Source of the DNA: a virus
Lineage: Duplodnaviria > Heunggongvirae > Uroviricota > Caudoviricetes
IMG/VR virus record: IMGVR_UViG_2778261139_000002
Location: 22,595 to 86,594 of that record
Strand: one strand, 5' to 3'
DNA: 64,000 nt
Every line of letters begins with the position of its first letter. The first letter of the stretch is position 1. The notes below the pieces were generated by a model that had not been told where the DNA came from, ran no database searches, and saw only the letters and a program-made list of their open reading frames with translations. The translations under genes and the position numbers were made by a program. Shown piece by piece: positions 1 through 20,135 of this stretch.

Positions 1-203
1 TACAGGGAATAAGTGACGCAGACCGACGACGTGAAGAAATTGAGGCTGCGAACAAACAGATGGCGGCGCAACAGAAAGCGCAGAACAAGCAGAATATCGG
101 TACGGGCATTGGTACGGGGGCGGCTATTGGCGCATCCGTTGGTGGTCCTGTTGGTGCTGTTGCTGGTGCAGTAATTGGCGGCATTGCTGGTTCTTTGTTT
201 TAA
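1..203 (+). CDS. C-terminal end of an upstream protein with glycine-zipper tail (partial CDS)
   Basis: Open frame 3 to stop at 201-203; translation ends ...NIGTGIGTGAAIGASVGGPVGAVAGAVIGGIAGSLF; RBS-like GGAGTGGTG precedes next gene. Confidence 0.5.
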   Translation, partial: QGISDADRRREEIEAANKQMAAQQKAQNKQNIGTGIGTGAAIGASVGGPVGAVAGAVIGGIAGSLF

Positions 204-213
204 GGAGTGGTGA

Positions 214-1479
214 ATGAGCGGATTTGCACAGGGGTTACTTGCCGGATTCAGCACCGTTGACCAGGCAATGACCCGTCGTAAGGAGCTTGGTCTGCGTGAA
301 GCACAGCTTGCCCGGCAACAGAAAAATAACGAGCGCGATTTTGAATTTGCGCAGTCTCAGTTTGAGCACCGGAAAGAGAATGATCAGCGTACATATGATC
401 TTAATGTCAGGAATGCTGACCGTGAATATGCGCTGAAAGAGAGGGAACACAAAGCAGCGCAGAATTATCGAAATGCGTCACTGGGTATGGAGCAGCAGCG
501 ACTCCAGTTGCAGAAATACAACCAGCGACGGCTTGAGTATAACGATATGCTGGCGCGCGATCAGCCTGTGATGGCTGCGCTTGGAAAGGCTGTGGATGCT
601 GGTGATCGGGATGCGGCAATGCGTCTTTACGGGCAGTTGTCAGAGGGTAATCCGCTGAGGCTGATGGCGAATGATGGCTATGCAGCGAAAGCGGGGCAGG
701 CCGTGAACAACCTGCAGAAAATCTTTGATGATAAGCCGGACAGGGCGATTGCTTCGCTGAATACCCCGGAAAATCTCGATGTGCTTTCCGGCGTGTTTGC
801 CCCGGAACTACAACAGCGTATTGGCATGCCTGATTCAACCGGGGAAAAGACAATAAAAGAGGCCAGGATTGGCAGTATCGTACCGGCGCAGCAGGAAGGG
901 TACGTACTTATTGGTCTTGATCTCACATACAGCGATGGCTCCACCGCGCATAAACCTGTAACAGAATACGGCAGTGCACATCCTGATGATCAAACCGTGC
1001 TGGCGATACCCGTTGATAAGGCTGTCGCTCTTGTCAGGGATCGCAGTAAATTCGCGGAAATTTCGAAAAATTACGGTTATTTCATGCCGAAGCAGCAGGG
1101 ACTTTCTCTGAAAGAGCTTCAGAAGGGGGCCAGCAACGTAGCGGCGGAGGCGATCAAGAATGGCGGTAATGCTCAGGCTGCGGTGGATGAATATTATGCT
1201 GCGACTGGTTCACAACCGCATCAACAGAAAATTCAGCAACAAAAACTTCAGCAACAGGTTATCAACTGGGCGGGAGATGATCCTGATAAGCTGTCATTTG
1301 CCAGAAATGTAGCGGCCCGTCAGCCTGAAATGCTGGAACCTCAGAATCAGAAATTGCTGGAGAACGGGTATGCGAATTTTCTCCGTATTCAAAAGGCCAG
1401 GGGGGAACAGGCCAGAGATGAAAGTGCTTCATCTGCATCTCAGTTTATCCGTGGACTGAAACAGAATTACGCCCAGTAA
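214..1479 (+). CDS. Hypothetical coiled-coil-rich protein, 421 aa (possible virion/late protein)
   Basis: Long ORF with AAGGAG 6 nt upstream of ATG; Gln/Arg/Glu-rich predicted coiled-coil composition; no family recognised. Confidence 0.6.
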   Translation: MSGFAQGLLAGFSTVDQAMTRRKELGLREAQLARQQKNNERDFEFAQSQFEHRKENDQRTYDLNVRNADREYALKEREHKAAQNYRNASLGMEQQRLQLQKYNQRRLEYNDMLARDQPVMAALGKAVDAGDRDAAMRLYGQLSEGNPLRLMANDGYAAKAGQAVNNLQKIFDDKPDRAIASLNTPENLDVLSGVFAPELQQRIGMPDSTGEKTIKEARIGSIVPAQQEGYVLIGLDLTYSDGSTAHKPVTEYGSAHPDDQTVLAIPVDKAVALVRDRSKFAEISKNYGYFMPKQQGLSLKELQKGASNVAAEAIKNGGNAQAAVDEYYAATGSQPHQQKIQQQKLQQQVINWAGDDPDKLSFARNVAARQPEMLEPQNQKLLENGYANFLRIQKARGEQARDESASSASQFIRGLKQNYAQ

Positions 1480-1511
1480 TTCACGATATTCCATTAATAC
1501 CATTTCCTGAT

Positions 1512-1538
1512 GCCCGGCCATTGTGCCGGGTTTTTTTA
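1512..1538 (+). terminator. Rho-independent terminator/attenuator hairpin followed by T7 tract
   Basis: CCCGGC-cattgt-GCCGGG followed by TTTTTTT, directly upstream of the giant ORF RBS. Confidence 0.5.
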
Positions 1539-1548
1539 TGGAGTCTGT

Positions 1549-4500
1549 ATGGCCTATTCAGAGGAACAGCGTCCTGAGGCGCAACTCGGTAACCAGAATC
1601 GTAACAGCCTGAACATTCAGCAACCCGGCGAAACTGACAGCTATGAAGCATTTTTCTCTGATCCGAATCGCTGGAAGGATAACAGTACGTCGTTCAGCCT
1701 GGGCGATGTATTGCCAACAATGGGTAAAGGTTTCGCCCAGTCCGTCCGGGGAACAGGGGAAATGGCCCGTGGACTCGGTGATGCGATGATTCAGAGCCCG
1801 GTAAAAACAGGGGTGCGTATTTTAAATGAGTTCAGCCGTATGGGGCTGCCGGGTGTCGCAACTGTGCAGGATATTTTTGCCGGTGGCAGCAGGGGGGCTG
1901 ATGAGGTCATCGATACCCTGCCTGATGGCAAAAACGCGGTTACTGATACTGTCGGTAAAGGTCTGAAGGCAACCGGTAAGGCTGTCAGTGATGGTGCTAA
2001 AGCCTCGGATGAATGGCTGACCGATAATATGTCGCCGGGTGCTGTGCGTGCGCTGAATACGCCAATGAGTGAAGGCTATGATGATCCCGCAGTCTGGCTG
2101 ACGAAGGGGATGAATTTTGTCGGTGCCGTTGCGGCAGATGTGTTTGCTGGCGGTGTGGCTAAAAAGGTGGGTGATGTCACACTGCGAAAAATGCTGACCG
2201 CCGGGCTGGAGAAAAAATACATCGCGGCAGGGATGCAGCCGGAAAGAGCCACGGCACTGGCAGCAGACGCTGTCGATAAAAAAATGCCGGATTTATTCCG
2301 GGCGGGCCTGATCACCCATTCCACAGCCAGTGCACAGGGGCAGAGTGCAATGGCGGCAGCAGATGCTGTTCTTAATGCGGATTACTCTGAGCTGGCGCAG
2401 TCACCGAAATTTCAGCAGACGTTTTTGTCCATTGACGCCGACCCGCAGCACGCACAGCTTACTGATCGCCAGAAAATGGACCTGGCAAAAGAGCGTGTGG
2501 CTGATGAGGTGCGTGCGCAACTGGCAACCGATCCTCAGTTGCTGGCTGTGAATGCCATGGCGGCAAAACTGGGCGATGCTCAGTTGCTTAATCTGGCGAT
2601 GCGGGGCACGGCGAATACCGTTAAAAGCGGCATGATCAGAAACGCCACTGAACAGGGGGCGATTAATGCGGCGCAGGGCGGCTATTCACGCTATCAGGAA
2701 AACATGGCACTGCGTGATACCGCCGGAATGGATGTGTCGCCGTGGGAGGGCGTGGCTGACGCAACGATCGAAGGTGCAGCCCTTGGTGCTGCGATGGGGG
2801 CACCATTCGGTGCGGTTGCCGGATATCGTGGCAGACGTCAGGCGGCAGATGAAGCCGCCATGCGTGAGGCTGAAGTCGTACAGCAGGACGACGCAGCCCC
2901 GCAACCAGAATCTGTTGATCCGGTGGCGCAGCATCGTGAATCCATGCAGGGGATGAATCGCGAGCAGCTTCTGGAGCAGTATGCTGATGCGGATATGGCG
3001 ACAGAGGGTGACGCATCCGCAACTCATCGCCGGGAAGCCGCCAGCCAGCTGTTGAATGAACTGGACGAACAGGCGAAGCGACAGGCTGTGATGAATGAGC
3101 TGAAGGCGAAGCCGCGTTCTGAACTGCTTGAGGAATACCGCAGACTCAGCCAGAAAGAGGGGCGCACCGAGACTGAAGAACAACAGTTTCAGGCAATACG
3201 AGAAGTCATTCGCCCACAACAGGAAGTGACGCCGGAAGCACAGTCACAGTCTGAAAATGCGGAGGATGGTAACGGGAGCATTTACCCGACGGTGCGGTTC
3301 CGGGACCCGAATGAAGTCCGCATTGAAATTAACGGGAATGGTGCGTCCAGACCAGCGGAACGCATTGAAAAGGTGCGCCCGGACAACCGTTATTTCACGG
3401 ATGAGAAAAGCGCCATGGGGAGTGATGTTTTCCGTAATGCCGCCGCCACCGGCCTGAAACCGTCCGTAGTGAAGAAAGGCGAGAATCAGTATGCCGTTGA
3501 AATGGATAATCCTGCGTTCTCTGAAAATGTGGCAACGGAAACCATTAACACCCTGGCTGACGGAGAGCGTATTGCTGATGCTGACCCGATGGAGCAGCCC
3601 GCGTTCATGCGTGACCCGCGATTCCGTGGTTTCACGGGGGATGATACGGAGGTACAGGCCCGCCTTGCCCGTGGCAACGCGCCGACGGCGGAGGAGCTTG
3701 TACGTTCACAGATGGCTGAAGGTGATGCCGGTCCGACAGCACAGGAGTTAACTGAGCGTCCGCGTCTGCCCGCCCCCGGCGATATTCATCCCGGACAGGG
3801 ATATCCGTTACCGGGAGAGGTGGCGCGTACGCCGGATGAGAATCAGGCCGGACGTGGTGGTCGTTTTACCACAACCGGTGAGGTTAAGGGCCAGAGTTTC
3901 CAGAAAGGACGCGGCCCGGCACAGGAAAACGCCGCTGGTCGCCAGGGGGAAATACTGGAGGGCGAAACTGTTCGTCGTGGTCTGCCGTCACCGGATGAGC
4001 AGAGTGTTACCGCCCCGGTACGTGAAGGTCTACCGGCTCCTGACATTACACACAATGTCCGCATGCCTCAGCCTGAACAGCTTCCCCGAACTGTTCGCAA
4101 CTCATTACCTGAGCTGGCACAGCAGGCAGAAGTACGCCGACAGACAGGAGAAGTTCGCGACATCCCGCATGCTGAAACAACAGCACATGAGTCTGAAACA
4201 GTTGCTGCTACTGATGGTGAAGGTGCCGCACGCGGAGGTGTTGCCGGGGGCAAAAAAATTGAAGACTTTGGCGAGGAAATTAAAGGGGCAGCCAAACACC
4301 GTTATGCACAGCTTGCTGAAACACTGGGTAAAACGCTGGAAGACAGGGATTATGCCACGCAGCCGCTGAGCAAACTGTTCCCGAAACCGGACTACGCAAA
4401 ACTGGCGAACGAAGGTGCCGATGCTGACACTCTGGCAATGATAGCTCTGTATCGTAGCGATATTCCGGCGAAGACGAAACACAATACGGCAGGCTGGGGG

Positions 4501-7500
4501 GAGAGCATAAAAAAAGTACGACACAGTGTATCGGAAATGCTGAACGGAACGGTCAGCGCGAAACGCCTCGCAGAATGGATGGAAGGTAGAATGCCCTCCC
4601 GTTACGCGGATACCTGGCAACTGTTACGCACTCTGCCACCCTCACAGATGGACAGGGCTTCTGCTTATCGGGTGGTATCGGGTGTGTATCAGGCGGCAGG
4701 AGGGAAGCGTTACGATCCGCCACAGAAACTTTATTCACTGCGCAATAAGGACAATAAGGGGAGTAACCTCTTTTTCTCGGAAAGCAGGGATGAATTACTG
4801 GCAAAGGCGAAAGTCTGGTTTGCAGAGCAGGAGGAAAAATCACAGGCGAAAGGTGATGAAAAAACAGCACCGTCACCGGATGACAAAATCCGCTTTGACG
4901 TTTACCGGAATACCCGCAGTGGCGATATTTTTATCGCTTACGGTAAAAACAAAATGCGGGTGAGAGGTGGCTTTAAGTCAGCCAGTGATGCGCGTAAGTA
5001 CATTGATTCACATCGTGATGAGCTTGTTCGTCATGTGAAGGATATGCGGGAGATTTCGCGTGAGGAGCAGCGTAACGCCACCAACCGCGACCGTACCGGA
5101 CCAGAACGCCGTAAAGGGGATGTTTCACCGGAGCAGTTCAGTGATGCGTTTGGTTTCCGTGGTGTGCAGTTTGGTAACTACGTGGAAGGTCCGCGTCGTC
5201 AGGCTGATTTGAACCGGGCTTATGACTCGCTGCATGACCTTGCGGAAGTACTGAATGTACCGACAAAAGCGCTTTCCCTGAACGGTCGTCTTGGCCTGGC
5301 ATTTGGTGCCCGTGGTAAGGGTAAGGCGGCGGCACACTATGAGTCAGGTGAGGTGGCAATCAACCTGACAAAAGGTAACGGACCGGGGGCGCTGGCGCAC
5401 GAATGGTTCCATTCACTGGATAATTATTTTGGTCGTTATGACGTTTCCACTGACGGGAAGATTACGTCAGGTGGCGACTTTATGACGGAAGCACAGCGTG
5501 CCAGGCGCGTATTTAAAGACGGCAGGTATGTTGATGCTGAATATCCGGTACGTCAGGAGGTTTACGACGCTTTTAAAGGTGTGATTCAGGCCATTAAAAA
5601 CAGTGACATGCCGCGTCGTTCAGCGCTTCTCGATGAGGTGCGCTCAAAACCGTACTGGTCAACGGATGTTGAAATGGCGGCACGTGCCTTTGAGCGTTAT
5701 GTTCAGGATAAGGCGCGTATGGCTGGCGTGGAGAATGATTATCTGGTCAATATCCGTAAGGCACCTGAGCACAACACAGATAACACTTGGGCTTATCCGA
5801 CGAATGCGGAACTGGATGGCGGTATTCGTGAGGCATTCGATCACCTGTTCCGCACCCTGAAAACCCGTGAGACGGACAAGGGCGTTGCGTTTTATTCCCG
5901 TAAGGGCGTTACCCGCACACCTGAAGGTAATCTCATTTCGGATGTTAACCGTAGTGCGGAAGCCAAAGGCAGCCCGGTCCCGCAGGTTGAAGCGGTTGCC
6001 CGTGGCGTGATGAGCGGCATTAAGGACAGTGACCTGAAGGTCCGTGTGGTGAAGTCACAGAAAGAGGCTGAAGCGCTGGCGGGTGAATCGTTCGACGGTT
6101 ACGGCAGGGTGCACGCATTCTATCGTCCGGATAAACGAGAAATTGTCCTGGTGGCGGATAACATCCCTGACGGGCGGACCGTACGCGAGAAGTTGCGTCA
6201 CGAGATTATCCACCATGCCATGGAGCATGTTGTCACGCCAGCGGAATATCAGACGATTATCAAAACCGTGCTGAAAACCCGCGACAGTGATAACGCCACC
6301 ATCCGTGAAGCATGGCGTAAGGTTGATGCGTCCTATGGTAAGGAATCACCGGAAGTACAGGCGGGTGAATTTCTGGCACATATGGCGGAGAAACAGCCGA
6401 ATAAATTCGTGGCGGCATGGGAGCGTGTTGTTGCCCTGGTCAAAGGGGTACTGCGTCGTACGGGGTTACTGAAACCGACGGAACTGAACGATATCAGACT
6501 TGTTCGCGAGACCATCCGTACGTTAGGCCAGCGTGTGCGGGAAGGTTACACGCCGCGTGAGGATGGCGCGGGCGCATCGTCTCAGTACTCCCGTAGTGGT
6601 AAACCTGATCCGTTCAAAGTGCCGGAAGGTGAGGGTGAACGTTATCGCGATGACCTTGCCAGAATGATGAAATCTCTGCGTACCACAGATTTAACGGTAA
6701 ACATCGGGCGTACGCCGCCGGTATTGCGTCACCTTGGTGCACCGGATTTGCCGCTGGTTATTTCCCGCGATACTGTGCGGAAGGCCACCAATGGTGTGAA
6801 ACATGTGGTGCCGATGGATGTTATCGAGAGACTACCGGAACTGATGCACGATCCGGATGCAATTTACCGTTCCGCGACAGAAAGAAATGCGGTTGTGATG
6901 CTGCTTGATGCCGTGGATAAAAATGGTGATCCGGTAGTGTCTGCGGTGCATATGAAGGCAACCCAAAAACTTCTGGAAGTTAACCGTATTGCTTCTGTTT
7001 ACGGAACGGAAAACGGGAAAAAACTGAAGAGTATGGAAATGGCTGGCTTAACATTATACAGGAGAGAAAAACTAAACCCTGATGGTTCTCTGTACAGAGG
7101 GCTCCAATTGCCCAAAGATGAGCACTCCCGTCAGGGTTCTGCGGATAAAATACTCTATCCTGAAGATATTCGCAAGGGGCCGTATTACTCCCGTACCAGC
7201 AGTCTGACACCGGAAGAGACAATTGCATCGCGTTTTGTGCGCCAGATGCAGGATAAATTCCAGGTGCTGAAAGCTGTTCAGGAGAATATCCGTAAAACTG
7301 GTGGAAAAATAGACGACAGTAACAACGCTTATATGGCGGAAGAACTCTTCCACGGGAAGGCGGAAAACGACCTGAACGTGATGAAGGAGCGCTACGTTCA
7401 GCCACTGGCTAAATTACTGGCGGACTACAAAATTGCGCAGGCCGATCTGGATGAGTACCTCTACGCCCGTCACGCGCCGGAACGTAACGCGCATATCGCG

Positions 7501-9930
7501 AAAATCAACCCGAAAATGCCGGACGGCGGTTCGGGGATGACCAACGCGGAAGCGGCGGAAATCATGCAGCGTGTACGTAACAGCGGCAAACAGGCACAGT
7601 ATGACCGTCTGGCAGGGATTGTTGACGATATGCTGGCCCGTCGCCGTGAGCTTATCCGTGAGGCCGGACTGGAAGAGAGCGGTGTGGTGGATGCTTGGCA
7701 GAACGCCTACCGTTACTACGTTCCCTTGAAAGGGCAGGATGTTGACGGTGTGGTGTCACTGCCCCGTACAGGTAAGGGCTTCACCATCGGTGGGCGTGAA
7801 AGTAAGCAGGCCATGGGGCGTGCATCCCGCGCACAGTCTCCGTCCACTCAGGCGATACAGGACTTGAGCGAATCGCTGATCCGCAGTCGCAAAAATGAAG
7901 TGGGTAACGCCTTCCTGAAGCTGGTGCAGGATAATCCCGATAAGGATTACTGGCAGGTATTCACTGATGACAGACCGGATACCATGCGTGTGATTGCAGA
8001 GCGCAAGGACCAGGAAACTGGTGAAACCATTCGCGAAGTTGTCGAGCGTCCGGTGGCGATGGCAATGATGGCAGACCGGTACTTCACCACCAAAAAGAAC
8101 GGCAAAACGTACTACATCAAACTCCATGATCCGCGCCTGATGCGTGCGATGAAGAATATGGGACCGGAAACCAGTAACGCAGTAATCCGTACGCTGGGGA
8201 AAGTTAACCGCTTCCTGGCAACGGTGAACACGTCGTATAACCCGGAATTCCTGGTCAGTAACTTTATCCGTGACGTGCAGACAGCGGTGATGAATCTGAA
8301 GGCGGAGCAGGGAAGGAGCGACGGCAAACTGAAAGGGCTGGATAACTTATCCGCACTGGCTGTGGTGAAAGACAGCCGTTCTGCTATGTCAGCCGTATAC
8401 GCCAGTCTGCGTGGCAAAAACCTCACGGGCAAAGGTGCGCAGTGGCAGAAGGTGTGGAAAGAGTTTGTTGAGGACGGAGGTAAAACCGGCTGGTTTAACA
8501 TGGGTGACCTTGAAGGCCAGCAGAAGGAAATGGATCGCCTTGTATCGCTGGCGAAGGGAGGATGGAAAGGCCAGAGTATCGGTGCATGGAATTCGTTCCT
8601 TAACCTTGTCGAGGATGCCAACGGGGCGGTTGAAAATGCTCTGCGTCTTTCTGCCTATAAACACGCCCGTGATGCCGGTTTGTCACGCCAGCAGGCGGCG
8701 TCTCTTGCCAAAAACATGACGGTGAACTTTAATCGTCGTGGTGAGCAGGGAGCGCTGATGAACTCGCTGTATATGTTTGCCAACGCCAGCATTCAGGGGA
8801 CGGCAAACCTGGTGAGAACGCTCGGACATCTTAATGGCGACGGGCCGTTACTGGAGCGCCTTCGCTGGAAGAATCTCAATGTACCGCAGAAAATCGCGCT
8901 TGCAGCTGTGGGTGCGGGTTATCTGCTTGGCTCGCTTAACCGCAGTGTTGCGGGGGAGGATGATGACGGGGTTAACTGGTATGACAAGGTGCCGTCTCAT
9001 GTGAAAGAGCGTAACCTCGTCATTATGAAATCGGTGTTCGGGGGCAAGGCCGGAGAGTACTGGAGTATTCCTCTGCCTTACGGGTACAACGTTTTCTTCC
9101 TGCTCGGGCATACTGCTGAAGGTGTGGCGGCAGGTGACCTGACGGCGTCCCGTGCTGCCGGTAATGTTGTCGGTGGTATCCTGGGGGCATTCAGTCCTGT
9201 GGGCAGTGAAACGTCGGAAACACTGTCCGGGGCATTGCTGAAAAATGCAGCGCCGACCATTCTGCGTCCGTTTGCGAACCTTGCCATGAATGAAAACTTC
9301 ATGGGGGCGCAGATTTACCAGGAGAACATGCCGTTTGGTACACCAAAACCTGACAGCCAGCTGGGAAGACGTTCAACGCCAGAAGCGTACAAGGCGTTTG
9401 CATCCTGGCTGAATGCGTTCTCAGGTGGCAGCCAGTATCGTCCCGGCGCGGTGGATATCACACCGGAATCGCTGAAATTCTGGATTGACTATATCTCCGG
9501 AGGGACAGGGCGCTTCATTTCCAAAACCACGGATGCGGCGGTGAAATCGCTGAATGGTATTGATATACCGGAGCAGCAGGTGCCTTTCCTGGGGAAAATT
9601 TCAGGTGAGGTGATGCCGTATACTGACCAGCAGAAGATGTACGACCGGATGACAGAGGTCGCGCAGTATCACGCAGAGCTGAAGAGTCTGAGCGGTGCAG
9701 AAAGAACGGCATTCATTGACGAGAACAACGGAAAATTGTCGATGAACGGGCTTATGCAGGATACCCGGAAGAGACTGAAGGATTTGCGCAAACAGCGCGA
9801 TGCCATTTATGCCGACAGTTCTCTCAGTCTGGCGCAGCAGGCGGCGATAGTGAAATCGGTAGAGCGGGATATGAAGGTTGCCGTGGATCGCTTTAACCGC
9901 GAGTACAACAAAAAAGTGGGAGTGGATTAA
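1549..9930 (+). CDS. Giant multidomain protein, 2793 aa, with two HExxH zincin-like motifs (polyvalent virion/injected protein candidate; function unknown)
   Basis: Uninterrupted 8.4 kb ORF; start moved from tabulated 1510 to ATG 1549 (GGAG 5 nt upstream; 1510 lies in terminator hairpin); motifs ALAHEWFHSLD (~nt 5398) and LRHEIIHHAMEH (~nt 6199). Confidence 0.8.
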   Translation: MAYSEEQRPEAQLGNQNRNSLNIQQPGETDSYEAFFSDPNRWKDNSTSFSLGDVLPTMGKGFAQSVRGTGEMARGLGDAMIQSPVKTGVRILNEFSRMGLPGVATVQDIFAGGSRGADEVIDTLPDGKNAVTDTVGKGLKATGKAVSDGAKASDEWLTDNMSPGAVRALNTPMSEGYDDPAVWLTKGMNFVGAVAADVFAGGVAKKVGDVTLRKMLTAGLEKKYIAAGMQPERATALAADAVDKKMPDLFRAGLITHSTASAQGQSAMAAADAVLNADYSELAQSPKFQQTFLSIDADPQHAQLTDRQKMDLAKERVADEVRAQLATDPQLLAVNAMAAKLGDAQLLNLAMRGTANTVKSGMIRNATEQGAINAAQGGYSRYQENMALRDTAGMDVSPWEGVADATIEGAALGAAMGAPFGAVAGYRGRRQAADEAAMREAEVVQQDDAAPQPESVDPVAQHRESMQGMNREQLLEQYADADMATEGDASATHRREAASQLLNELDEQAKRQAVMNELKAKPRSELLEEYRRLSQKEGRTETEEQQFQAIREVIRPQQEVTPEAQSQSENAEDGNGSIYPTVRFRDPNEVRIEINGNGASRPAERIEKVRPDNRYFTDEKSAMGSDVFRNAAATGLKPSVVKKGENQYAVEMDNPAFSENVATETINTLADGERIADADPMEQPAFMRDPRFRGFTGDDTEVQARLARGNAPTAEELVRSQMAEGDAGPTAQELTERPRLPAPGDIHPGQGYPLPGEVARTPDENQAGRGGRFTTTGEVKGQSFQKGRGPAQENAAGRQGEILEGETVRRGLPSPDEQSVTAPVREGLPAPDITHNVRMPQPEQLPRTVRNSLPELAQQAEVRRQTGEVRDIPHAETTAHESETVAATDGEGAARGGVAGGKKIEDFGEEIKGAAKHRYAQLAETLGKTLEDRDYATQPLSKLFPKPDYAKLANEGADADTLAMIALYRSDIPAKTKHNTAGWGESIKKVRHSVSEMLNGTVSAKRLAEWMEGRMPSRYADTWQLLRTLPPSQMDRASAYRVVSGVYQAAGGKRYDPPQKLYSLRNKDNKGSNLFFSESRDELLAKAKVWFAEQEEKSQAKGDEKTAPSPDDKIRFDVYRNTRSGDIFIAYGKNKMRVRGGFKSASDARKYIDSHRDELVRHVKDMREISREEQRNATNRDRTGPERRKGDVSPEQFSDAFGFRGVQFGNYVEGPRRQADLNRAYDSLHDLAEVLNVPTKALSLNGRLGLAFGARGKGKAAAHYESGEVAINLTKGNGPGALAHEWFHSLDNYFGRYDVSTDGKITSGGDFMTEAQRARRVFKDGRYVDAEYPVRQEVYDAFKGVIQAIKNSDMPRRSALLDEVRSKPYWSTDVEMAARAFERYVQDKARMAGVENDYLVNIRKAPEHNTDNTWAYPTNAELDGGIREAFDHLFRTLKTRETDKGVAFYSRKGVTRTPEGNLISDVNRSAEAKGSPVPQVEAVARGVMSGIKDSDLKVRVVKSQKEAEALAGESFDGYGRVHAFYRPDKREIVLVADNIPDGRTVREKLRHEIIHHAMEHVVTPAEYQTIIKTVLKTRDSDNATIREAWRKVDASYGKESPEVQAGEFLAHMAEKQPNKFVAAWERVVALVKGVLRRTGLLKPTELNDIRLVRETIRTLGQRVREGYTPREDGAGASSQYSRSGKPDPFKVPEGEGERYRDDLARMMKSLRTTDLTVNIGRTPPVLRHLGAPDLPLVISRDTVRKATNGVKHVVPMDVIERLPELMHDPDAIYRSATERNAVVMLLDAVDKNGDPVVSAVHMKATQKLLEVNRIASVYGTENGKKLKSMEMAGLTLYRREKLNPDGSLYRGLQLPKDEHSRQGSADKILYPEDIRKGPYYSRTSSLTPEETIASRFVRQMQDKFQVLKAVQENIRKTGGKIDDSNNAYMAEELFHGKAENDLNVMKERYVQPLAKLLADYKIAQADLDEYLYARHAPERNAHIAKINPKMPDGGSGMTNAEAAEIMQRVRNSGKQAQYDRLAGIVDDMLARRRELIREAGLEESGVVDAWQNAYRYYVPLKGQDVDGVVSLPRTGKGFTIGGRESKQAMGRASRAQSPSTQAIQDLSESLIRSRKNEVGNAFLKLVQDNPDKDYWQVFTDDRPDTMRVIAERKDQETGETIREVVERPVAMAMMADRYFTTKKNGKTYYIKLHDPRLMRAMKNMGPETSNAVIRTLGKVNRFLATVNTSYNPEFLVSNFIRDVQTAVMNLKAEQGRSDGKLKGLDNLSALAVVKDSRSAMSAVYASLRGKNLTGKGAQWQKVWKEFVEDGGKTGWFNMGDLEGQQKEMDRLVSLAKGGWKGQSIGAWNSFLNLVEDANGAVENALRLSAYKHARDAGLSRQQAASLAKNMTVNFNRRGEQGALMNSLYMFANASIQGTANLVRTLGHLNGDGPLLERLRWKNLNVPQKIALAAVGAGYLLGSLNRSVAGEDDDGVNWYDKVPSHVKERNLVIMKSVFGGKAGEYWSIPLPYGYNVFFLLGHTAEGVAAGDLTASRAAGNVVGGILGAFSPVGSETSETLSGALLKNAAPTILRPFANLAMNENFMGAQIYQENMPFGTPKPDSQLGRRSTPEAYKAFASWLNAFSGGSQYRPGAVDITPESLKFWIDYISGGTGRFISKTTDAAVKSLNGIDIPEQQVPFLGKISGEVMPYTDQQKMYDRMTEVAQYHAELKSLSGAERTAFIDENNGKLSMNGLMQDTRKRLKDLRKQRDAIYADSSLSLAQQAAIVKSVERDMKVAVDRFNREYNKKVGVD

Positions 9931-10331: not shown

Positions 10332-11258
10332 TCATTGGCGTACCTCCTTCGGCGGTTCTGGTAGCGGCATCCAGTGGGTTACTTCTTTGAGATGCAGGTC
10401 TTCGCCATCACCGTCATCCCAAGTGGGATTGCCATCATTAAACCAGTCGCCATATACGCCGACCTGAGTGTTGGGGATGCTTGGTGGGTAGTTGTTTTTA
10501 AAGTCAGCTGCTAACACATAGTATTGTCGCTCTCCCATTTCTGGCATTCGATCACTACAGCTTATCCAACCATCCGGAGTTACCGGAACTGGCGGAACGG
10601 CTGTTTGCTCTCGAACGTCATTAGTCGCTATCGGTTCTGCTGCCAACTGACTGGCATATTTGTTAATGGTAACGATAAGCTCTTGCTCAGCCTCATCCAG
10701 ACAATCACCGATACCTCGCCTGTCACCGTCAAAATCATCGAAATCGGCACGAATCTTGGCAACCTTCTGGATTGCGGACAACACCTCACTAGGAATTACC
10801 GGATAGTTGGTTGACGTTTCCGCGATTTCCCGAAAATTATTGGTTGACGAATTCTTGTTTTCCCGAAAGTTTCCGGACTGAAGCATGGCGGCGCGGCAGG
10901 CATTCCAGCCTCTTACCTCTGCAATAGCGGCAACCGCATCAACCGCGTACATGCTAAGAGGATTAGGCATTGGTTTTTCTTCCGGTACTACTGGTGCTGG
11001 AGGGGCGGCGTAAATGCCCTCTATCACTAAATGTTTGCGCTCAAAATCATCTGGCTCTCGATGATATACGTAACTCCAATCACCAAGGTTATCATTGCGC
11101 CTGCAACGGAAACCTATCGGCTCGGCTTCCAGCGCTGCCAGAGCAATTCGTGCCAGTTCTTCCGCTTCTTCTGCTGGCAGTACAACGTTGCTACCAGGTC
11201 CGTATGTTTCGCGCCACTGTTTGATTGTCAGCAGTCGCCCTTTGGTAATAGTGATCAT
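10332..11258 (-). CDS. Phage protein with C-terminal DUF551-like motif, 308 aa
   Basis: ORF; C-terminal ...HLKEVTHWMPLPEPPK resembles the DUF551 signature; translationally coupled to upstream gene. Confidence 0.55.
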   Translation of the reverse strand: MITITKGRLLTIKQWRETYGPGSNVVLPAEEAEELARIALAALEAEPIGFRCRRNDNLGDWSYVYHREPDDFERKHLVIEGIYAAPPAPVVPEEKPMPNPLSMYAVDAVAAIAEVRGWNACRAAMLQSGNFRENKNSSTNNFREIAETSTNYPVIPSEVLSAIQKVAKIRADFDDFDGDRRGIGDCLDEAEQELIVTINKYASQLAAEPIATNDVREQTAVPPVPVTPDGWISCSDRMPEMGERQYYVLAADFKNNYPPSIPNTQVGVYGDWFNDGNPTWDDGDGEDLHLKEVTHWMPLPEPPKEVRQ

Positions 11259-11770
11259 GCCGCGTTTCCTTCTTTCTTATTAACAATCACACCGTCATAT
11301 ATTTCATTAAGGTGCCCCCTCAACTCCATGCGCCTTAATGCAGATAACATGTAATCGCATTCAACCTGCTTATTTCCAGTAAATGGCTTATCGTCAGGAT
11401 TACCCCAACAGCAATTACCCTTGGGCCACCCATGTACTTTCCGTACTCTTCCGTTAACAACGTGAAGTAACCCCCAGCCAGCTGGTAAATCCTCAATTGA
11501 AATAATTCCCGGCTCACTAATAAAGAATCGCCAGTCGCCCATTCCAAGAGACGGATTTTTACGAAAACGCTTTTTTCTATCTGCTAACAAGTCAGCACGA
11601 GAACACTTCGCCTCTATCAGGCATGATGCTGAATTTCTGAATCCCATAGCATCTGGCTGTTCTCCGGTACTGGTTACAGCTATAAAGCGGTCATGAAAAC
11701 AAACCTTGAACCCGTTGCGCTTAAGGAACTTGTACGCAATCTGACAGAGTTCGCGGTGTGTTAGCGCCAT
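11255..11770 (-). CDS. Hypothetical protein, 171 aa, possible PD-(D/E)xK nuclease fold
   Basis: ORF with 4-nt overlap to next gene; D...EAK arrangement (PDAMGF...CLIEAKCSRAD) noted by eye only. Confidence 0.5.
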   Translation of the reverse strand: MALTHRELCQIAYKFLKRNGFKVCFHDRFIAVTSTGEQPDAMGFRNSASCLIEAKCSRADLLADRKKRFRKNPSLGMGDWRFFISEPGIISIEDLPAGWGLLHVVNGRVRKVHGWPKGNCCWGNPDDKPFTGNKQVECDYMLSALRRMELRGHLNEIYDGVIVNKKEGNAA

Positions 11771-11875
11771 ATCACTCTCCTTTGATGCCAGTGTTTACAA
11801 CCTGACAAGCCTCTTTGAGCACCCAGTCAACAGCGTCTTTCCATGCTCCGGTTTCGGCTGGCGGATTCTCACGTT

Positions 11876-12466
11876 TTACCTGCTCATAGAAGCCAGTCCT
11901 TCCGGCACTACTGGCGATGGCTGTTTAGCTTCTAAATCAGCAATTCTGTCAACCACGGCATCGACAGCATCTGAAAAACTGAAACAGTTACTCCACTCAG
12001 GCCTATCCCCGGTTGCTGCAAAGTACATATCAGCTAAAGCAGACTCAGCATGGTCACGCTCATTAATGAGTTGCTCTTCGCTTTTCTCCAGTTCTGCAAT
12101 GCGCTTACTTCCATCCGCGATTACACCCTCGTAATATTCACGCTGCTCGTTGAGTTTTGATTTTGCTGCTTCCAGCTCAACGCGCAGCTTCCCTACCGTT
12201 AGCGCAATATCCTCGTTCTCCTGGTCGCGTGATTTGATGTATTGCTGGTTTCTTTCCCGTTCATCCAGCAGTGCCAAGACGGTAGCCGGATTGGCTGCTG
12301 CTATGAATCGCTTATTGGCGCGATTATCTGTTCCTGAGCATGATGCTATGTAGTAATTGGCGTTCAGTCCGGCATTGGCAATAACCCCATAGTCATCAGT
12401 ACACCATTCGCCTGGTGTTGCATTTTCTGCCGCCAGCCGCAGTGCTTGATAGCTAACTCCGTTCAC
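11876..12466 (-). CDS. Ead/Ea22-like prophage protein, 196 aa
   Basis: N-terminal ATPGEW motif and central coiled coil typical of Ead/Ea22-like proteins. Confidence 0.55.
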   Translation of the reverse strand: MNGVSYQALRLAAENATPGEWCTDDYGVIANAGLNANYYIASCSGTDNRANKRFIAAANPATVLALLDERERNQQYIKSRDQENEDIALTVGKLRVELEAAKSKLNEQREYYEGVIADGSKRIAELEKSEEQLINERDHAESALADMYFAATGDRPEWSNCFSFSDAVDAVVDRIADLEAKQPSPVVPEGLASMSR

Positions 12467-12684
12467 TTCACACCTCTCTGTTTGTTGATAAGTTCAATAT
12501 CCTGCTGGCAACTTGCGCAAGCTCGGCATCCACGAACAGCCAGGCGTCGCCGCTCATCTATCGGATCGCCACACTCGCAACAATGAGTAGCAGATGGGGC
12601 ATTACTATCGGATTTGTATTTTTGCAGGGAGAGATTGCGCTGCAATTCTTCGATTTCAGCGGCATTGTCGACGATATCTGCCAT
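12463..12684 (-). CDS. TraR/DksA-family C4 zinc-finger protein, 73 aa
   Basis: CECGDPIDERRR...CRACASC four-cysteine motif at C terminus; size typical of phage TraR. Confidence 0.65.
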   Translation of the reverse strand: MADIVDNAAEIEELQRNLSLQKYKSDSNAPSATHCCECGDPIDERRRLAVRGCRACASCQQDIELINKQRGVK

Positions 12685-12731
12685 TTTCCTTTCCTTCAGG
12701 CATGAAAAAAGGAGCCGAAGCTCCTTTGGTA

Positions 12732-13361
12732 TCAGAATTCAAATTGTCTTGCCCGCAGGCTTTTCAGCATTGGCATGGCCCGCTGGATAACGGAACTTGA
12801 CATGTCGAGACGTGTTACCTCCCTCAGTAGCGCGTCTCTGTTCTTCGTCACCATGTAGATGGTCTCAAACGCAATGTCATACAGCTTGTTCGTGTATGAG
12901 GAGTTCAGCTCTTTCATAATGGGATACAGGTGTTTGCTGATGTCCTGGGCTTTTTCCATCCAGAGCTGCATGTAGCAAAGGAGGATGATTTCCTCGGCTG
13001 TGAATTGCGGCTGTGGTTCTGCTTGTACTGGCTGAATGTTGCGAAGTTTCTTTTCGCACTCGATGAAGTAGCGGCGTATCTGGCGGCCTTTTTCGTTACG
13101 TTCAACCATCGCAAGCTCTTTGGCTGTGTCGAGGGTGAGGTGGTAATCCTTGCGGCGGCGGCCTGGAGTTTTCGCCAAATTTGGCGAAAATAGAATGTAG
13201 TCTAAATTTTCTACGAATCCATACTCGTTTAGCCTGGCCCGTATCCAGTTAGAAAAATCTTTACCTACCTCTAAAAATCCATGCAAATCACGCGCGTTCA
13301 CCAGAAGCGTAGGTTCATTTGAGATTGTACCTTCAAACACAGGGATGAGTTGAGTGGTCAT
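12732..13361 (-). CDS. AntA/AntB-like antirepressor-domain protein, 209 aa
   Basis: N-terminal LIPVFEG...ARDLHGFLEV...FSNWI pattern recalled from the AntA N-terminal domain; last gene before element end. Confidence 0.5.
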   Translation of the reverse strand: MTTQLIPVFEGTISNEPTLLVNARDLHGFLEVGKDFSNWIRARLNEYGFVENLDYILFSPNLAKTPGRRRKDYHLTLDTAKELAMVERNEKGRQIRRYFIECEKKLRNIQPVQAEPQPQFTAEEIILLCYMQLWMEKAQDISKHLYPIMKELNSSYTNKLYDIAFETIYMVTKNRDALLREVTRLDMSSSVIQRAMPMLKSLRARQFEF

Positions 13362-13698
13362 GATGACCTCCTTATTTGTTTAGTTTATAACCGCCAGTTA
13401 GTAGCTGGCGGTCGGGTGTCAACTGAGCCAAATAAGAAGCTCTGGGCATATTCCCCTTGCGGGTGTTGTATTACGCCTCTCCACCCGACCTTTGTACGGA
13501 TGTAACTATGCCAAATTGCAGGCATAAAAAAGCCGCAAAGCTATCGGGTGCGGAGACCGCTTATTTGTTCAGTGCGATCAGTATGCGATAGCTCTGACGG
13601 ATTTGTCAAATCGTGCAGTAACATCCTTTTCTTCCTTGCCATTTCTCAATGATGACAAAGGGTGGATTCGGATTGGTATTGGGACAAAAGTGAGACAC

Positions 13699-13732
13699 AC
13701 AAAGCTTTGCATCGGCTTACAAAGCTTTGCAT
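13699..13732. repeat. Two 14-bp direct repeats (ACAAAGCTTTGCAT) 20 bp apart, each containing the 10-bp palindrome CAAAGCTTTG
   Basis: Exact copies at 13699-13712 and 13719-13732, about 80 bp inside the inferred element end. Confidence 0.7.
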
Positions 13733-13776
13733 GTTTTTCAATGTTGGGACGTGTGAGCGCAGAAATGACGGGCTAT

Positions 13777-13890
13777 CTAATTGATTTTAAACGATACGTA
13801 ACCAACTTTAAAATCTTTGCACGCCAGTTCGCAGGTTTTACAGCCAGTACAGCGGCTGGAATCGATAAAAAATCCATATTGTGTGGTCAT
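13777..13890 (-). pseudogene. ynfG: ynfG 5-prime fragment (4Fe-4S subunit gene truncated by the mobile element)
   Basis: Translation MTTQYGFFIDSSRCTGCKTCELACKD matches the recalled YnfG/DmsB-type N terminus, then diverges and stops after 37 codons; start 10 bp after ynfF stop. Confidence 0.7.
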
Positions 13891-13900
13891 GGGCTACTCC

Positions 13901-16327
13901 TTAAACCTTTTCGATCTGGACAAGATTGCTGTGCGACGGGTTTCCCTTTGCCAGCGGTGAAGGGCGGTGAGAGGTCAGAATATTGATACTGCCGCCGTGA
14001 TCGACCCGGTCACCAAACATATCCGCTTTAAGCCACGCACCTTGCCCGATGGCGGTAACGCCAGGCAGAATACGCGGAGTCACTTTTGCGGCAATCAGCA
14101 TTTCTCCATTATTGTTAAATACCCGCACGGTATCGCCATGACGGATACCGCGTGCCTGAGCATCAATGGGGTTGATCCACACCTCTTGTGGGCAGGCCTG
14201 CTGTAACACATCAATATTGCCGTAGCTGGAGTGGGTACGCGCTTTGTAGTGGAAGCCCGTTAACTGCAGTGGATAGGTTTTCCGCAGGGGATCGTCCCAG
14301 CCATCAAAACCTGGGGTATACGCAGGAAGGGGATGAATAATTTCATCTTTTTTCAATTCCCAGGTATCTGCAATCTTCGCCAGTCGTTCCGAATAAATTT
14401 CGATTTTCCCCGAAGGTGTTTTCAACGGGTTTGCCTGTGGATCTTCACGGAATGCGCGGAAAGCGACGTAGTGTTCTTCCGGGCATTTTTTCTTAAAGAT
14501 CCCGGTCGTTTTCATCTCCTCGTAGTCGGGCATCTCAGGGTTACGTTCCTTCGTTTTCGCATGGAGATATTTGATCCATTCATGCTGACTGCGACCTTCA
14601 GTAAAGGTTTGATAAACGTCTGGTCCTAAGCGTTTGGCGACTTCACTCAGCATCCAGTAGATGGGTTTGCGTTCAAATTTTGCTGAGGTTGCGGGTTGGG
14701 CGAGGATCACATAGCCCATATTCCCTGCAGATTCATGAGAGATAAGGTCTTCTTGCTCTGTTGGCATCAGGTCGGGCAACAGGATATCGCAATACTTAGC
14801 CGAGGCCGTCATGAAGTGGTCAATGCCAACAATCATCTCGCACTTGCTGTCATCCTGAAGCACCTCATGGGTGTGATTGATGTCGCCATGTTGATTGATC
14901 AATGTGTTACTGGCGTAGCACCATAAAAACTTGATGGGGACATCCAGTTTTTCTTTTCCACGAACACCATCACGGGTCGCGGTCATTTCCTTACCATGGT
15001 CGATGGCATCTGTCCATGTAAAGACGGAAATCTGCGTTTTAACAGGGTTCTCAAGCATCGGGAACCATTCTACCCCCAGATCCCAGCTACCTTCGCGTAC
15101 ACCTGAGTTGCCGCCGTTTATGCCGACGTTACCGGTGAGAACGGAAAGCATGGCAATAGCGCGGGACGTTTGCTCGCCGTTGGAATGTCGTTGTGGCCCC
15201 CAACCCTGACAAATATAAGCAGGTTTTGCTGAACCGATCTCTCGTGCCAACTGGATAATTTTTTCTGCCGGGATGCTGGTGATTTTTGCTGCCCATTCCG
15301 GCGTTTTAGCTATGCCGTCAGGCCCTTCGCCCAGAATATAGGCTTTATAATGCGCGTTACGTGGTGCGTTGGCGGGCAGAGTTTTTTCATCGTAACCAAC
15401 ACAATATTTGTCGAGAAATGGCTGATCGACCATGTTTTCAGTAATCAGTACCCAGGCAATCGCACAGGCCAGTGCGCCATCGGTGCCTGGGCGAATGGGC
15501 AGCCATTCATCTTCACGCCCGGCAGCTGTGTCGTTATAACGTGGATCGATGACGATCATGCGTGCGTTTGAACGTTCGCGGGCTTGCTCGACGTAGTAAG
15601 TGACACCACCGCCGCTCATCCGCGTTTCTGCCGGGTTATTTCCGAACATAACGACCAGTTTCGTATTGGCGATATCATCCGGGCTGTTGCCATCATTGGC
15701 ACCGAACATATAACTCATTGCGGCACTGATCTGTGCGGTACTGTAGCTGCCATAGCGACTGAGAAAACCACCGCAAGAGTTCATCAGACGGTACGGGACG
15801 TTTGAGTTGGTGATGTTTCCGCCATCTACGCCTGTTCCGTACAGGACATGTACAGCCTCATTGCCGTAATCTTTCAGGATCCGCCGAAGATTATCACTGA
15901 TGGTATCCAGGGCTTCGTCCCAACTTATCCGTTCAAATTTACCTTCACCGCGCTTGCCGACGCGCTTCATGGGATATTTCAACCTATCAGGATGATTCAT
16001 CCGTCGGCGGATAGAGCGCCCGCGTAAACACGCTCGAACCTGATGGTTACCGTAGACGTCGTCACCTGTCGTATCAGACTCCACCCAGTACACGGTGTCA
16101 TCTTTCACATGCAAACGTAACAGACAGCGGCTCCCGCAGTTAACGGTGCAGGAACTCCAGACCGCTTTCTCTTCTACCGGAGCCTCTGCCGCCCGGACCA
16201 TTTGGGAAAATGGCAGAGTGAAAGCACTGCTTGCCAGCGCAAGACTGCCAAGTGCGGAGGTTTTCATCAGACTTCTACGGCTGATTTCAGCCTTCATGAG
16301 CGCCTCTGTGGTATGGATTTTCATCAT
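13901..16327 (-). CDS. ynfF: Molybdopterin oxidoreductase catalytic subunit (DmsA paralogue) with Tat signal
   Basis: 808-aa ORF; twin-arginine SRRSLMK signal, Cys cluster CTVNCGSRC, DmsA-family length; position distal to ynfE. Confidence 0.9.
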   Translation of the reverse strand: MMKIHTTEALMKAEISRRSLMKTSALGSLALASSAFTLPFSQMVRAAEAPVEEKAVWSSCTVNCGSRCLLRLHVKDDTVYWVESDTTGDDVYGNHQVRACLRGRSIRRRMNHPDRLKYPMKRVGKRGEGKFERISWDEALDTISDNLRRILKDYGNEAVHVLYGTGVDGGNITNSNVPYRLMNSCGGFLSRYGSYSTAQISAAMSYMFGANDGNSPDDIANTKLVVMFGNNPAETRMSGGGVTYYVEQARERSNARMIVIDPRYNDTAAGREDEWLPIRPGTDGALACAIAWVLITENMVDQPFLDKYCVGYDEKTLPANAPRNAHYKAYILGEGPDGIAKTPEWAAKITSIPAEKIIQLAREIGSAKPAYICQGWGPQRHSNGEQTSRAIAMLSVLTGNVGINGGNSGVREGSWDLGVEWFPMLENPVKTQISVFTWTDAIDHGKEMTATRDGVRGKEKLDVPIKFLWCYASNTLINQHGDINHTHEVLQDDSKCEMIVGIDHFMTASAKYCDILLPDLMPTEQEDLISHESAGNMGYVILAQPATSAKFERKPIYWMLSEVAKRLGPDVYQTFTEGRSQHEWIKYLHAKTKERNPEMPDYEEMKTTGIFKKKCPEEHYVAFRAFREDPQANPLKTPSGKIEIYSERLAKIADTWELKKDEIIHPLPAYTPGFDGWDDPLRKTYPLQLTGFHYKARTHSSYGNIDVLQQACPQEVWINPIDAQARGIRHGDTVRVFNNNGEMLIAAKVTPRILPGVTAIGQGAWLKADMFGDRVDHGGSINILTSHRPSPLAKGNPSHSNLVQIEKV

Positions 16328-16384: not shown

Positions 16385-18811
16385 TTATATTTTTTCGATC
16401 TCGACCAGATTAGTGTGCTGCGGGTTTCCCTTCGCCAGTGGTGAAGGGCGCAGAGTGGTTAGCGTATTCACACAGCCGCCATGGTCGATTTTATCGCCAG
16501 ACATATTGGCCTCGTGCCAGGCTCCCTGGCCCATAGCGCTAACTCCAGGGAGAATACGTGGTGTTACTTTGGCTGGTAGCCGAACTTCGCCACGATGGTT
16601 AAACACCCGCACCATATCGCCGTTGGCAATCCCACGTTTCTGCGCATCTATAGGGTTGATCCACACCTCCTGACGGCAGGCAGCCTTCAGGAGATCAATA
16701 TTGCCGTAGGTCGAGTGAGTACGGGATTTGTAATGGAAACCAAACAGTTGCAGTGGGAAGGTTCTACGTTCAGGGGAGTTCCAGCCTTCAAAGGTTGAGG
16801 CATAAACTGGCAATGGGCTTATCACTTCATCTTTTTCCAGTTCCCAGGTACGGGCAATTTCCGCCAGCCTGCTGGAATAAATTTCAATCTTACCGGAAGG
16901 CGTTTTAAGTGGATTTGCCTCGGGGTCGTCACGAAATGCTTTGTAGGCGACAAAATGGCCATTGGGATCTTTACGCTTATAGATACCCATTTTTTTCAGT
17001 TCGTCGTAAGACGGTAACGCCGGATCTTTGGCAAGCATTTTGGCGTACAGATGTTGTAACCATTGTTCCTGCGTGCGACCTTCTGTGAACTTTTGATAGA
17101 CGTCAGGTCCAAGACGTTTCGCGACTTCACTCAGGATCCAGTAAATCGGTTTGCGTTCGAATTTTTCGCTGGTGACAGGCTGGAGGAAAATGAGATATCC
17201 CATGTTACCGGCGTAGTCGTTAGGAATAATATCTTCCTGCTCAACGGTCATCAGGTCTGGCAGCAGAATGTCGGCATATTTTGCCGATGAGGTCATAAAG
17301 TTTTCGATGATCACAATCATTTCGCATTTCGATTCGTCCTGCAGAATTTCATGCGTTTTGTTGATGTCAGAATGCTGATTAACGAGGGTATTTCCCGCGT
17401 AGTTCCAGATGAACTTAATGGGCACATCCAGTTTATCTTTGCCGCGGACGCCGTCGCGGATTGCCGTCATTTGCGGACCATGATCGATAGCATCTGTCCA
17501 GCTGAAGCAGGAGATTGACGTTTTGACCGGATTATCCAGCACCGGCAGGCGTTCTATGGTAATGGTATAGGTCGATTCACGCGCGCCACTATTTCCGCCG
17601 CTGATGCCGACATTGCCCGTCAAAATAGGTAACATAGCAATAGCGCGTGCAGTCAGTTCGCCGTTTGCCTGGCGTTGCGGCCCCCAGCCCTGGCAGATAT
17701 AAGCGGGTTTTGCTGTGCCAATTTCACGCGCCAGTTTGATGATACGGTCTACCGGGATACCGGTAATTTGCGAAGCCCACTGCGGCGTTTTCGCTGTGTT
17801 ATCATCACCTTCACCAAGAATATAGGCTTTATAGTGACCATTTTTGGGTGCATCTGCGGGTAAGGTTTTTTCGTCATAGCCGACGCAGTATTTATCGAGA
17901 AAAGGTTGATCAACGAGATTTTCGTTAATCAATACCCAGGCAATACCCGCAACCAGCGCGGCATCGGTGCCCGGGCGAATAGGGAGCCATTCATCTTCAC
18001 GACCAGCAGCCGTATCGGTATATCGCGGATCGATAACAATCATTTTGGCGTTCGATTTCTCGCGCGCTTTTTCAAGAAGATAAGTGATGCCACCGCCGCT
18101 CATGCGGGTTTCTGCCGGGTTGTTACCAAACATCACGACCAGCTTGCTGTTTTCAATATCCGTGGTGCTGTTGCCATCATTACTGCCGTAGGTGTAGGGC
18201 ATGGCACAGGAAATTTGCGCGGTGCTGTAGGAGCCATACTGATTGAGTGAACCGCCGTAGCAGTTCATCAGGCGTTTGACCGCCGAGGCTGATGGCGAAG
18301 AGCGGGTCATATTGCCGCCAACAATCCCCGAAGAGTACTGAATATATACAGCCTCATTGCCATATTGTTCGACGGTTTTTTTCAGGCTACTGGCGATAGT
18401 ATCCAGGGCTTCATCCCAGCTAATCCGTTCGAATTTGCCTTCACCGCGTGTACCCACGCGTTTCATTGGGTAATTCAAGCGATCGGGATGATTAATACGC
18501 CGGCGGATGGAGCGACCGCGCAAACAGGCGCGTACCTGATGGTTGCCGTACTCATCGCTGCCGGTATTGTCAGTTTCCACCCAGGTCACTTCATTATCTT
18601 TAACATGTAGACGAAGTGCACAGCGGCTACCACAGTTGACGGAACAGGCACCCCAGATCACTTTTTCGCTGGCCTGTTGTACCGTTGCCGCTGCACTGCG
18701 CAGGGTGAACGGTAAAGAAAAACCGCCTGCAGCCAGCGCCAGAGAACCTATCGCGGTTGATTTAACGAGTGTTCTGCGGCTGATGCCCACCATTCGGTCA
18801 TTTTTGGACAT
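16385..18811 (-). CDS. ynfE: Molybdopterin oxidoreductase catalytic subunit (DmsA paralogue) with Tat signal
   Basis: 808-aa ORF, SRRTLVK Tat motif, tandem paralogue of ynfF. Confidence 0.9.
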   Translation of the reverse strand: MSKNDRMVGISRRTLVKSTAIGSLALAAGGFSLPFTLRSAAATVQQASEKVIWGACSVNCGSRCALRLHVKDNEVTWVETDNTGSDEYGNHQVRACLRGRSIRRRINHPDRLNYPMKRVGTRGEGKFERISWDEALDTIASSLKKTVEQYGNEAVYIQYSSGIVGGNMTRSSPSASAVKRLMNCYGGSLNQYGSYSTAQISCAMPYTYGSNDGNSTTDIENSKLVVMFGNNPAETRMSGGGITYLLEKAREKSNAKMIVIDPRYTDTAAGREDEWLPIRPGTDAALVAGIAWVLINENLVDQPFLDKYCVGYDEKTLPADAPKNGHYKAYILGEGDDNTAKTPQWASQITGIPVDRIIKLAREIGTAKPAYICQGWGPQRQANGELTARAIAMLPILTGNVGISGGNSGARESTYTITIERLPVLDNPVKTSISCFSWTDAIDHGPQMTAIRDGVRGKDKLDVPIKFIWNYAGNTLVNQHSDINKTHEILQDESKCEMIVIIENFMTSSAKYADILLPDLMTVEQEDIIPNDYAGNMGYLIFLQPVTSEKFERKPIYWILSEVAKRLGPDVYQKFTEGRTQEQWLQHLYAKMLAKDPALPSYDELKKMGIYKRKDPNGHFVAYKAFRDDPEANPLKTPSGKIEIYSSRLAEIARTWELEKDEVISPLPVYASTFEGWNSPERRTFPLQLFGFHYKSRTHSTYGNIDLLKAACRQEVWINPIDAQKRGIANGDMVRVFNHRGEVRLPAKVTPRILPGVSAMGQGAWHEANMSGDKIDHGGCVNTLTTLRPSPLAKGNPQHTNLVEIEKI

Positions 18812-20133: not shown

Positions 20134-20135
20134 TG

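Follow-up and report, generated by a model that had tools for sequence, protein, structure and literature searches.

Where does the mobile element that interrupts the ynfEFGH-dmsD operon end, what is it, and what becomes of the genes that it cuts off? These questions arise from a stretch of 64,000 nucleotides (the window) assigned to a Caudoviricetes record of IMG/VR, in which phage DNA passes directly into Escherichia coli host DNA. A preliminary description held that the element ends inside ynfG, that the operon is cut after its two catalytic-subunit genes, and that ynfG, ynfH, and dmsD are missing from their expected position. The element is indeed a temperate phage whose end lies in ynfG, and the cut falls after ynfE and ynfF as described.

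On the host side, ynfE (16385..18811, minus strand) is an intact, uninterrupted open reading frame (ORF) of 808 codons in the ORF list and is annotated as ynfE in matching genomes. The 808-codon ynfF (13901..16327, minus strand; stop at 13901-13903), also intact, is the last of the host operon genes that the window contains whole. An ATG at 13888-13890, 10 bp past the ynfF stop as its coordinates confirm, opens the stub ynfG' (13777..13890, minus strand), which reads MTTQYGFFIDSSRCTGCKTCELACKDFKVGYVSFKIN followed by a stop, 37 codons in all. Residues 1-28 are identical to full-length YnfG of strain 07-4299 (205 aa, WP_000213028.1), which begins MTTQYGFFIDSSRCTGCKTCELACKDFKDLGPEV, and the YnfG N terminus given in the preliminary description was correct. 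Divergence, previously estimated at about 27 codons, falls exactly at codon 29 (D to V); 28 native YnfG codons (13807-13890) are followed by 9 phage-derived codons and the stop. The stub has the N-terminal sequence and first CxxCxxCxxxC motif of a YnfG/DmsB-type four-cluster [4Fe-4S] electron-transfer subunit, and its ORF stops after codon 37, short of the approximately 205 aa with all four cysteine groups that define such a protein. For the identical stretch in E. coli 2009C-3133, the PGAP label is "4Fe-4S binding protein, incomplete, missing C-terminus," and in RefSeq the two halves of ynfG are already marked incomplete.

The boundary itself can be placed to within a few bases. When intact ynfG is aligned with the window junction and with the integrase-side junction taken from a related complete genome, TTTAAAG is the sole sequence common to all three. 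This 7-bp core (overlap) of attR lies at 13806..13812, read on the ynfG-sense strand, and spans ynfG codons 27-29. The true end of the element is this core and not position 13362, which is merely the start of the antirepressor gene ant; the DNA from 13362 to 13805 is noncoding phage sequence composed of an attP arm and the ant leader. We searched 5,426 complete E. coli genomes with a 206-bp probe across the window junction at a threshold of at least 80% coverage. The attR junction is present in 82 of these genomes (about 1.5%), and in approximately 5,200 others the match begins only at base 107 of the probe (window position 13806). The junction is therefore neither a chance match nor an assembly artefact. 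An attL-type junction with the remainder of ynfG was found in 89 of the 5,426 genomes, consistent with the 82 for attR.

Next to the core lies the P' arm of attP (13610..13805, minus strand), containing two GTCCCA(A/C) repeats (13745-13750 and 13680-13685) that are candidate arm-type Int sites, together with a 17-bp hairpin (13695-13734) that folds at -22.7 kcal/mol (z = -4.7). Because Stx phages that use other sites match the window only up to 13609, the stretch 13610-13805 can be recognized as the integrase-specific arm. The reconstructed attP holds four same-orientation copies of GTCCCA(A/C), at -103, -92, +62, and +127 of the core, against a background of 0.22 per kb, and from this arrangement we infer that the repeats would act as arm-type integrase sites. 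Window positions 13519-13805 are 96.5% identical to the final 287 bases of the Shigella phage POCJ13 record, whose last base corresponds to window position 13805, and both prophage ends coincide to the base with the ends of that record on either side of the core. The attR site thus joins the 5' part of ynfG, through the TTTAAAG core, to the P' arm of POCJ13. Several other candidate features were rejected: the window contains no tRNA gene as an integration target, a subthreshold mir-19 match at 13693-13736 corresponds to nothing more than the 17-bp hairpin, and a putative strong intrinsic terminator at 13518-13580 folds no better than shuffled sequences (z = -0.12).

Phage-type DNA had been described past the stub, and Pfam matches bear this out. 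The gene ant (12732..13361, minus strand) encodes an AntA/P22_AR_C antirepressor (AntA, 1.1e-26; P22_AR_C, 8.4e-07) and is codirectional with ynfEF. It is followed on the same strand by a TraR/DksA zinc finger gene (12463-12684), an Ead/Ea22 gene (11876-12466), an ORF of unnamed function (11255-11770), and a gene for a DUF551 protein (10332-11258), an uninterrupted ORF of 308 codons with the same length as POCJ13 gp74. Transcription of these accessory genes (10332..12684) runs from the right prophage end inward, and their order is that of POCJ13 gp74-gp78. RefSeq splits the sequence-identical DUF551 region of 2009C-3133 into three fragments or pseudogenes, which is probably an annotation quirk and not real decay. 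The end of the phage late region (1..9930) comprises a 421-aa ORF (214-1479, plus strand) and, closing the late operon, a 2806-aa polyvalent protein (1510-9930, plus strand; Pfam LPD38, LPD5, LPD1, and MuF_C). This large protein has near-identical counterparts in POCJ13 (gp71, LPD5 domain-containing protein) and in the other matched Stx phages.

The closest phage is POCJ13 (NC_025434, Diegovirus, Sepvirinae), with 98.7% identity over 93% of window positions 1-13790; this identity and the Pfam content show that the right prophage end carries the late and accessory genes of Sepvirinae. The core, the P' arm, and the late and accessory genes are shared with POCJ13, Shigella phage 75/02 Stx, and the ynfG Stx1a prophages of E. 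coli 2009C-3133 and RM10410. One difference lies near the attachment site: the window and 2009C-3133 carry a single module of an sRNA and ant, whereas an extra approximately 535 bp between ant and the att arm give POCJ13 (within 4106-5266 of its 57000-62699 segment) and many ynfG lysogens a second, partial antA module. The difference looks like a deletion or duplication that arose by recombination between the repeated RNA modules. Another viral locus (L053) has two copies of the RNA motif.

Taken with the attR site, these matches make it very probable that window positions 1-13812 are the attR-end part of a POCJ13-like, Stx-type, short-tailed temperate prophage (Sepvirinae) integrated at the ynfG core. 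A tyrosine integrase would have carried out site-specific recombination into the 7-bp TTTAAAG at codons 27-29, an insertion that leaves the 28-codon ynfG stub fused to 9 phage codons at the attR end. Splitting of ynfG by Stx1-phage integration is an already published and fairly common event. The gene is the integration site of the Stx1 phages POCJ13 in Shigella flexneri and 75/02 in Shigella sonnei (PMC5447701), of a 62.5-kb Stx1a prophage in E. coli RM10410 (PMC10562709), and of an stx1a prophage in CIDM-EC20-1974 (bioRxiv 10.1101/2024.05.07.593058).

The window stops inside the prophage, and the far end was seen only in the sister genome of E. coli 2009C-3133 (NZ_CP013025.1). Window positions 1-13900 are 100.0% identical to this genome in one piece, and an ungapped comparison runs without mismatch up to base 14167. 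On the host side, mismatches to 2009C-3133 number 14-26 per kb (1.4-2.6%) from 14168 to approximately 24000 and 9 per kb over the next 2 kb. Positions 13901-24100 are instead 100% identical to strain 07-4299 and to other, unrelated lineages, and among the complete E. coli genomes of RefSeq there is none with 100% identity to phage and host portions alike. The window therefore presents the same phage in another chromosomal background, and its far end is read by analogy. The identity that continues 355 bp past the core to 14167 might suggest that host flank was transferred along with the prophage; we set this aside as uninformative, as the 07-4299 backbone is also identical there, and the first 100 bp of the host flank are invariant in more than 5,000 genomes.

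The prophage of 2009C-3133 is complete, approximately 61 kb long, and of the Stx1a type. It encodes int, exo/bet/gam, N, a cI-type repressor, cro, cII, replication and nin functions, Q, and both the A and B subunits of stx1a, followed by late genes for lysis, terminase, portal, an N4-gp56-type capsid, and tail; an stx region of the prophage in the window would fall before the first base of the window. At the far end, also beyond the region covered by the window, a POCJ13-type tyrosine integrase (Pfam Phage_integrase domain) stands beside the remainder of ynfG, and the integrase-side junction together with int (1,288 bp) is 99.6% identical to POCJ13. The gene order is int, 'ynfG (540 bp), intact ynfH, and intact dmsD. 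The preliminary description had allowed that ynfG might resume at the other end of the element, and the missing part was located there in the sister genome, next to the integrase and not rebuilt: PGAP calls 'ynfG a pseudogene with a missing N terminus, its remaining 177 codons lying approximately 61 kb from the stub. The earlier reading, which spoke of dmsD loss, holds in part. YnfG is destroyed and the operon is split, but in 2009C-3133 dmsD is not lost; ynfH and dmsD are displaced there, not deleted.

A phage that splits a gene may carry a replacement for the end that it removes, in which case a functional ynfG would be reconstituted at the integrase side. The reconstructed attP does resemble attB over approximately 25 bp to the left of the core (17 of 25 bases identical), as expected of the relic of a duplicated gene end. 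The frame that enters 'ynfG in 2009C-3133, however, reads N, a stop, and then NELSSRFQVVSNNFKDLGPEV; the stop lies 13 codons before the junction, the possible starts are GTG only, and the entering frame contains neither the first CxxCxxCxxxC motif nor any of the four N-terminal cysteines, in keeping with the pseudogene call by PGAP. With an in-frame stop and no cysteine motif, a ynfG rebuilt by phage sequence was rejected for the sister genome, and we regard reconstitution as exceedingly improbable. In the sister genome, integration has left 177 codons of ynfG, together with ynfH and dmsD, some 61 kb away beside the integrase, and nothing at that site makes up for the missing N terminus of YnfG.

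The window holds only 13.8 kb of phage DNA, and PGAP calls several right-end genes fragments in the identical sequence of 2009C-3133, both of which would suit a decayed prophage remnant with a deletion reaching into ynfH and dmsD, so that the downstream genes would be truly lost in the strain from which the window came. Against such a remnant, the 13.8 kb match a complete 61-kb Stx1a prophage at 100% identity and must therefore have been acquired recently; the reading frames of Ant, TraR, the DUF551 protein (308 aa), and the 2806-aa protein are all open; and attL junctions with the ynfG remainder are as common as attR junctions (89 versus 82 genomes). True loss of ynfH and dmsD is accordingly very unlikely. 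The identity of the 7-bp core at both junctions also means that excision would be precise, and the target is a conditionally used anaerobic operon. These two properties could fit "active lysogeny," a reversible switch in which regulated excision restores ynfG and the operon for anaerobic selenate or S-oxide respiration. Yet in the sister genome the element is an entire Stx phage competent for lysis, regulated excision without lysis finds no support, and ynfG is intact in approximately 98% of E. coli genomes, which together make such a switch hardly credible.

For an ordinary integrated prophage, the arrangement of genes suggests several consequences for the host. A lysogen would make no functional YnfG, and precise excision would be expected to restore the gene. 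Selenate reduction and DmsA maturation may be affected in turn. The downstream genes ynfH and dmsD would be uncoupled from the ynfE promoter and transcribed only by read-through from int or from internal promoters. Both genes follow int directly and share its strand, and the 52 bp that separate the int stop codon from the core in 2009C-3133 showed no terminator-like structure, so that read-through from int is possible. The Stx phages of the 933W type in wrbA and the Stx1 phage at yehV/mlrA are likewise lambdoid, use a tyrosine integrase, and split a nonessential host gene (see also the site table of PMC10562709); the ynfG phage differs from them in integrase specificity and target gene. Because ynfG lies in the interior of an operon of five genes, insertion at this site also raises the question of polarity on ynfH-dmsD. 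Transcription of the ynfEFGH-dmsD operon is predicted to respond to anaerobiosis (PMC5203670), and DmsD, encoded downstream of ynfEFGH, is needed for maturation of DmsABC (PMC12096835). Partial compensation for YnfG by DmsB is conceivable if the two are paralogues. Lubitz and Weiner reportedly described them as such in 2003.

A second, lambdoid prophage (24172-64000) adjoins rspB, and an island of approximately 10 kb of host DNA from ynfF to rspB is sandwiched between the two prophages. This second prophage begins with an ORF for a 431-aa integrase (24172-25467) and an 823-aa exonuclease (25811-28282) and continues with terminase, portal, and tail genes as far as the end of the window. It includes DicF (28927-28978, minus strand) and two cspA-thermoregulator matches (39620-40012 and 42522-42907), and no ORF of stx size is visible between 24172 and 64000. 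Its position beside rspB is one that we take to be that of Qin in K-12.

Between the attP arm and ant, the phage leader holds a structured RNA. A full-length match to Rfam RF02221 (sRNA-Xcc1; model positions 1-87) occupies 13402..13490 on the minus strand at 69.1 bits versus a gathering threshold of 53, and the element consists of two hairpins and the stem that closes them; 41 nt separate its end from the start codon of ant, which lies downstream. A consensus scan predicts a sigma-70-like promoter, TTGACA-18-CATACT (13580..13609, minus strand; 10/12), as a candidate for driving the sRNA-ant unit. The hairpin 2 segment GAGCUUCUUAUUUG, with the loop CUUAUUUG, is complementary to two target words on either side of the element. 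The upstream copy, ACUGAACAAAUAAG (13560..13573, minus strand; repeats D3 and I9), is complementary to the hairpin 2 loop, with a duplex energy of -18.2 kcal/mol versus -10.8 +/- 2.8 for shuffled sequences. The downstream copy, ACUAAACAAAUAAGGAGGUC (13365..13384, minus strand), includes the ant Shine-Dalgarno sequence and the word ACUAAACAAAUAAGGAGG at 13367-13384; the target beside the Shine-Dalgarno sequence is CAAAUAAG, 13 of 14 bases are complementary to the hairpin 2 segment (repeat I3), and the duplex energy is -18.8 kcal/mol versus -9.7 +/- 2.7 shuffled. A different candidate regulator of ant, the microRNA-size RNA 24B_1 of Phi24B, was rejected: the 20-nt sequence attributed to it has no match in the window even at 3 mismatches, and its published location between lom and vb_24B_43 would fall outside the window.

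This layout of promoter, upstream target, 87-nt RNA, downstream target over the ribosome-binding site, and antirepressor is like that of P1/P7 c4 and N15 CA. Those RNAs fall in the Rfam family C4 (RF01695, with c4-a1b1/isrK), whereas the window element belongs to RF02221, which is listed without a clan in the Rfam scan output; no C4 match was obtained at E <= 1 in 13300-13900, and the element is not a member of that family. In the same scan, the N15 region upstream of the anti-immunity genes scores as isrK/c4-a1b1 and then C4, with the N15 CA RNA at 78.8 bits. Most likely, the sRNA-Xcc1 element acts in the manner of c4, an antisense RNA that covers the ribosome-binding site of ant.

Pairing of this kind can be followed across the family. 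A conserved 22-mer of sRNA-Xcc1 retrieved 95 distinct instances in viral contigs, and all 18 of 18 that were rescanned are RF02221. Counting a complement as at least 7 nt matching the locus's own hairpin 2, and taking hairpins from other loci as the control, we found a complement in the 45 nt before the downstream start codon for 56% of the 95 loci (control, 2.8%) and in an 80-nt upstream window for 74% (control, 5.9%). The 95 loci use at least 27 different target words, which indicates many independent covariation events, and the downstream sites adjoin the Shine-Dalgarno sequence. A second block, at the junction 3' of hairpin 2, covaries likewise in many loci. Antirepressor-type N-terminal domains (KilA-N, AntA, Bro-N, pRha, P22_AR_N, or ORF6N) occur in 58 of 68 downstream ORFs. 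In one viral contig (L036, 2422-3753, plus strand), isrK, C4, sRNA-Xcc1, and an ORF6N antirepressor-type gene are followed by isrK and C4 again, so that two RNA families alternate within one anti-immunity region. From covariation and gene context, we consider it likely that RF02221 represents a widespread c4-like immunity RNA that would gate antirepressor translation in many phages. Where the literature consulted touches on the function of sRNA-Xcc1, it refers to Chen et al. 2011 and presents the RNA as one linked to virulence in Xanthomonas; the title of that paper calls it integron encoded. In the literature consulted, no stated link between sRNA-Xcc1 and c4-like control of ant was found, nor did the consulted part of a 2025 phage sRNA review contain a c4-type or sRNA-Xcc1-type RNA paired with a Stx-phage ant.

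Integration at ynfG fixes the orientation of the prophage and hence places the ant unit directly downstream of ynfEF in the same direction, such that host read-through could enter the anti-immunity unit. A broader proposal follows this arrangement: RF02221 would be c4-like, read-through from the ynfE promoter would feed the unit, and anaerobic conditions in the gut would alter the proportion of sRNA to Ant and thereby Stx-phage induction. The 17-bp hairpin at 13695-13734 and the antisense RNA are candidate barriers between ynfEF and ant. Physiological coupling of ynfE transcription with the ant unit is unlikely, and the proposal as a whole is quite improbable.

In practice, the ynfF-ynfG'-ant junction is a marker for a POCJ13-type, often stx1a-bearing, prophage, from which loss of YnfG function and possibly a change in dmsD expression can be predicted. 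The sRNA-Xcc1 module is the sole feature of the interval that might repay more work, as a testable control point for prophage induction. An RNA family that the literature consulted on its function treats as Xanthomonas virulence linked would appear to behave in phages as a c4-type antirepressor gate, the ant gene of Stx phages included.
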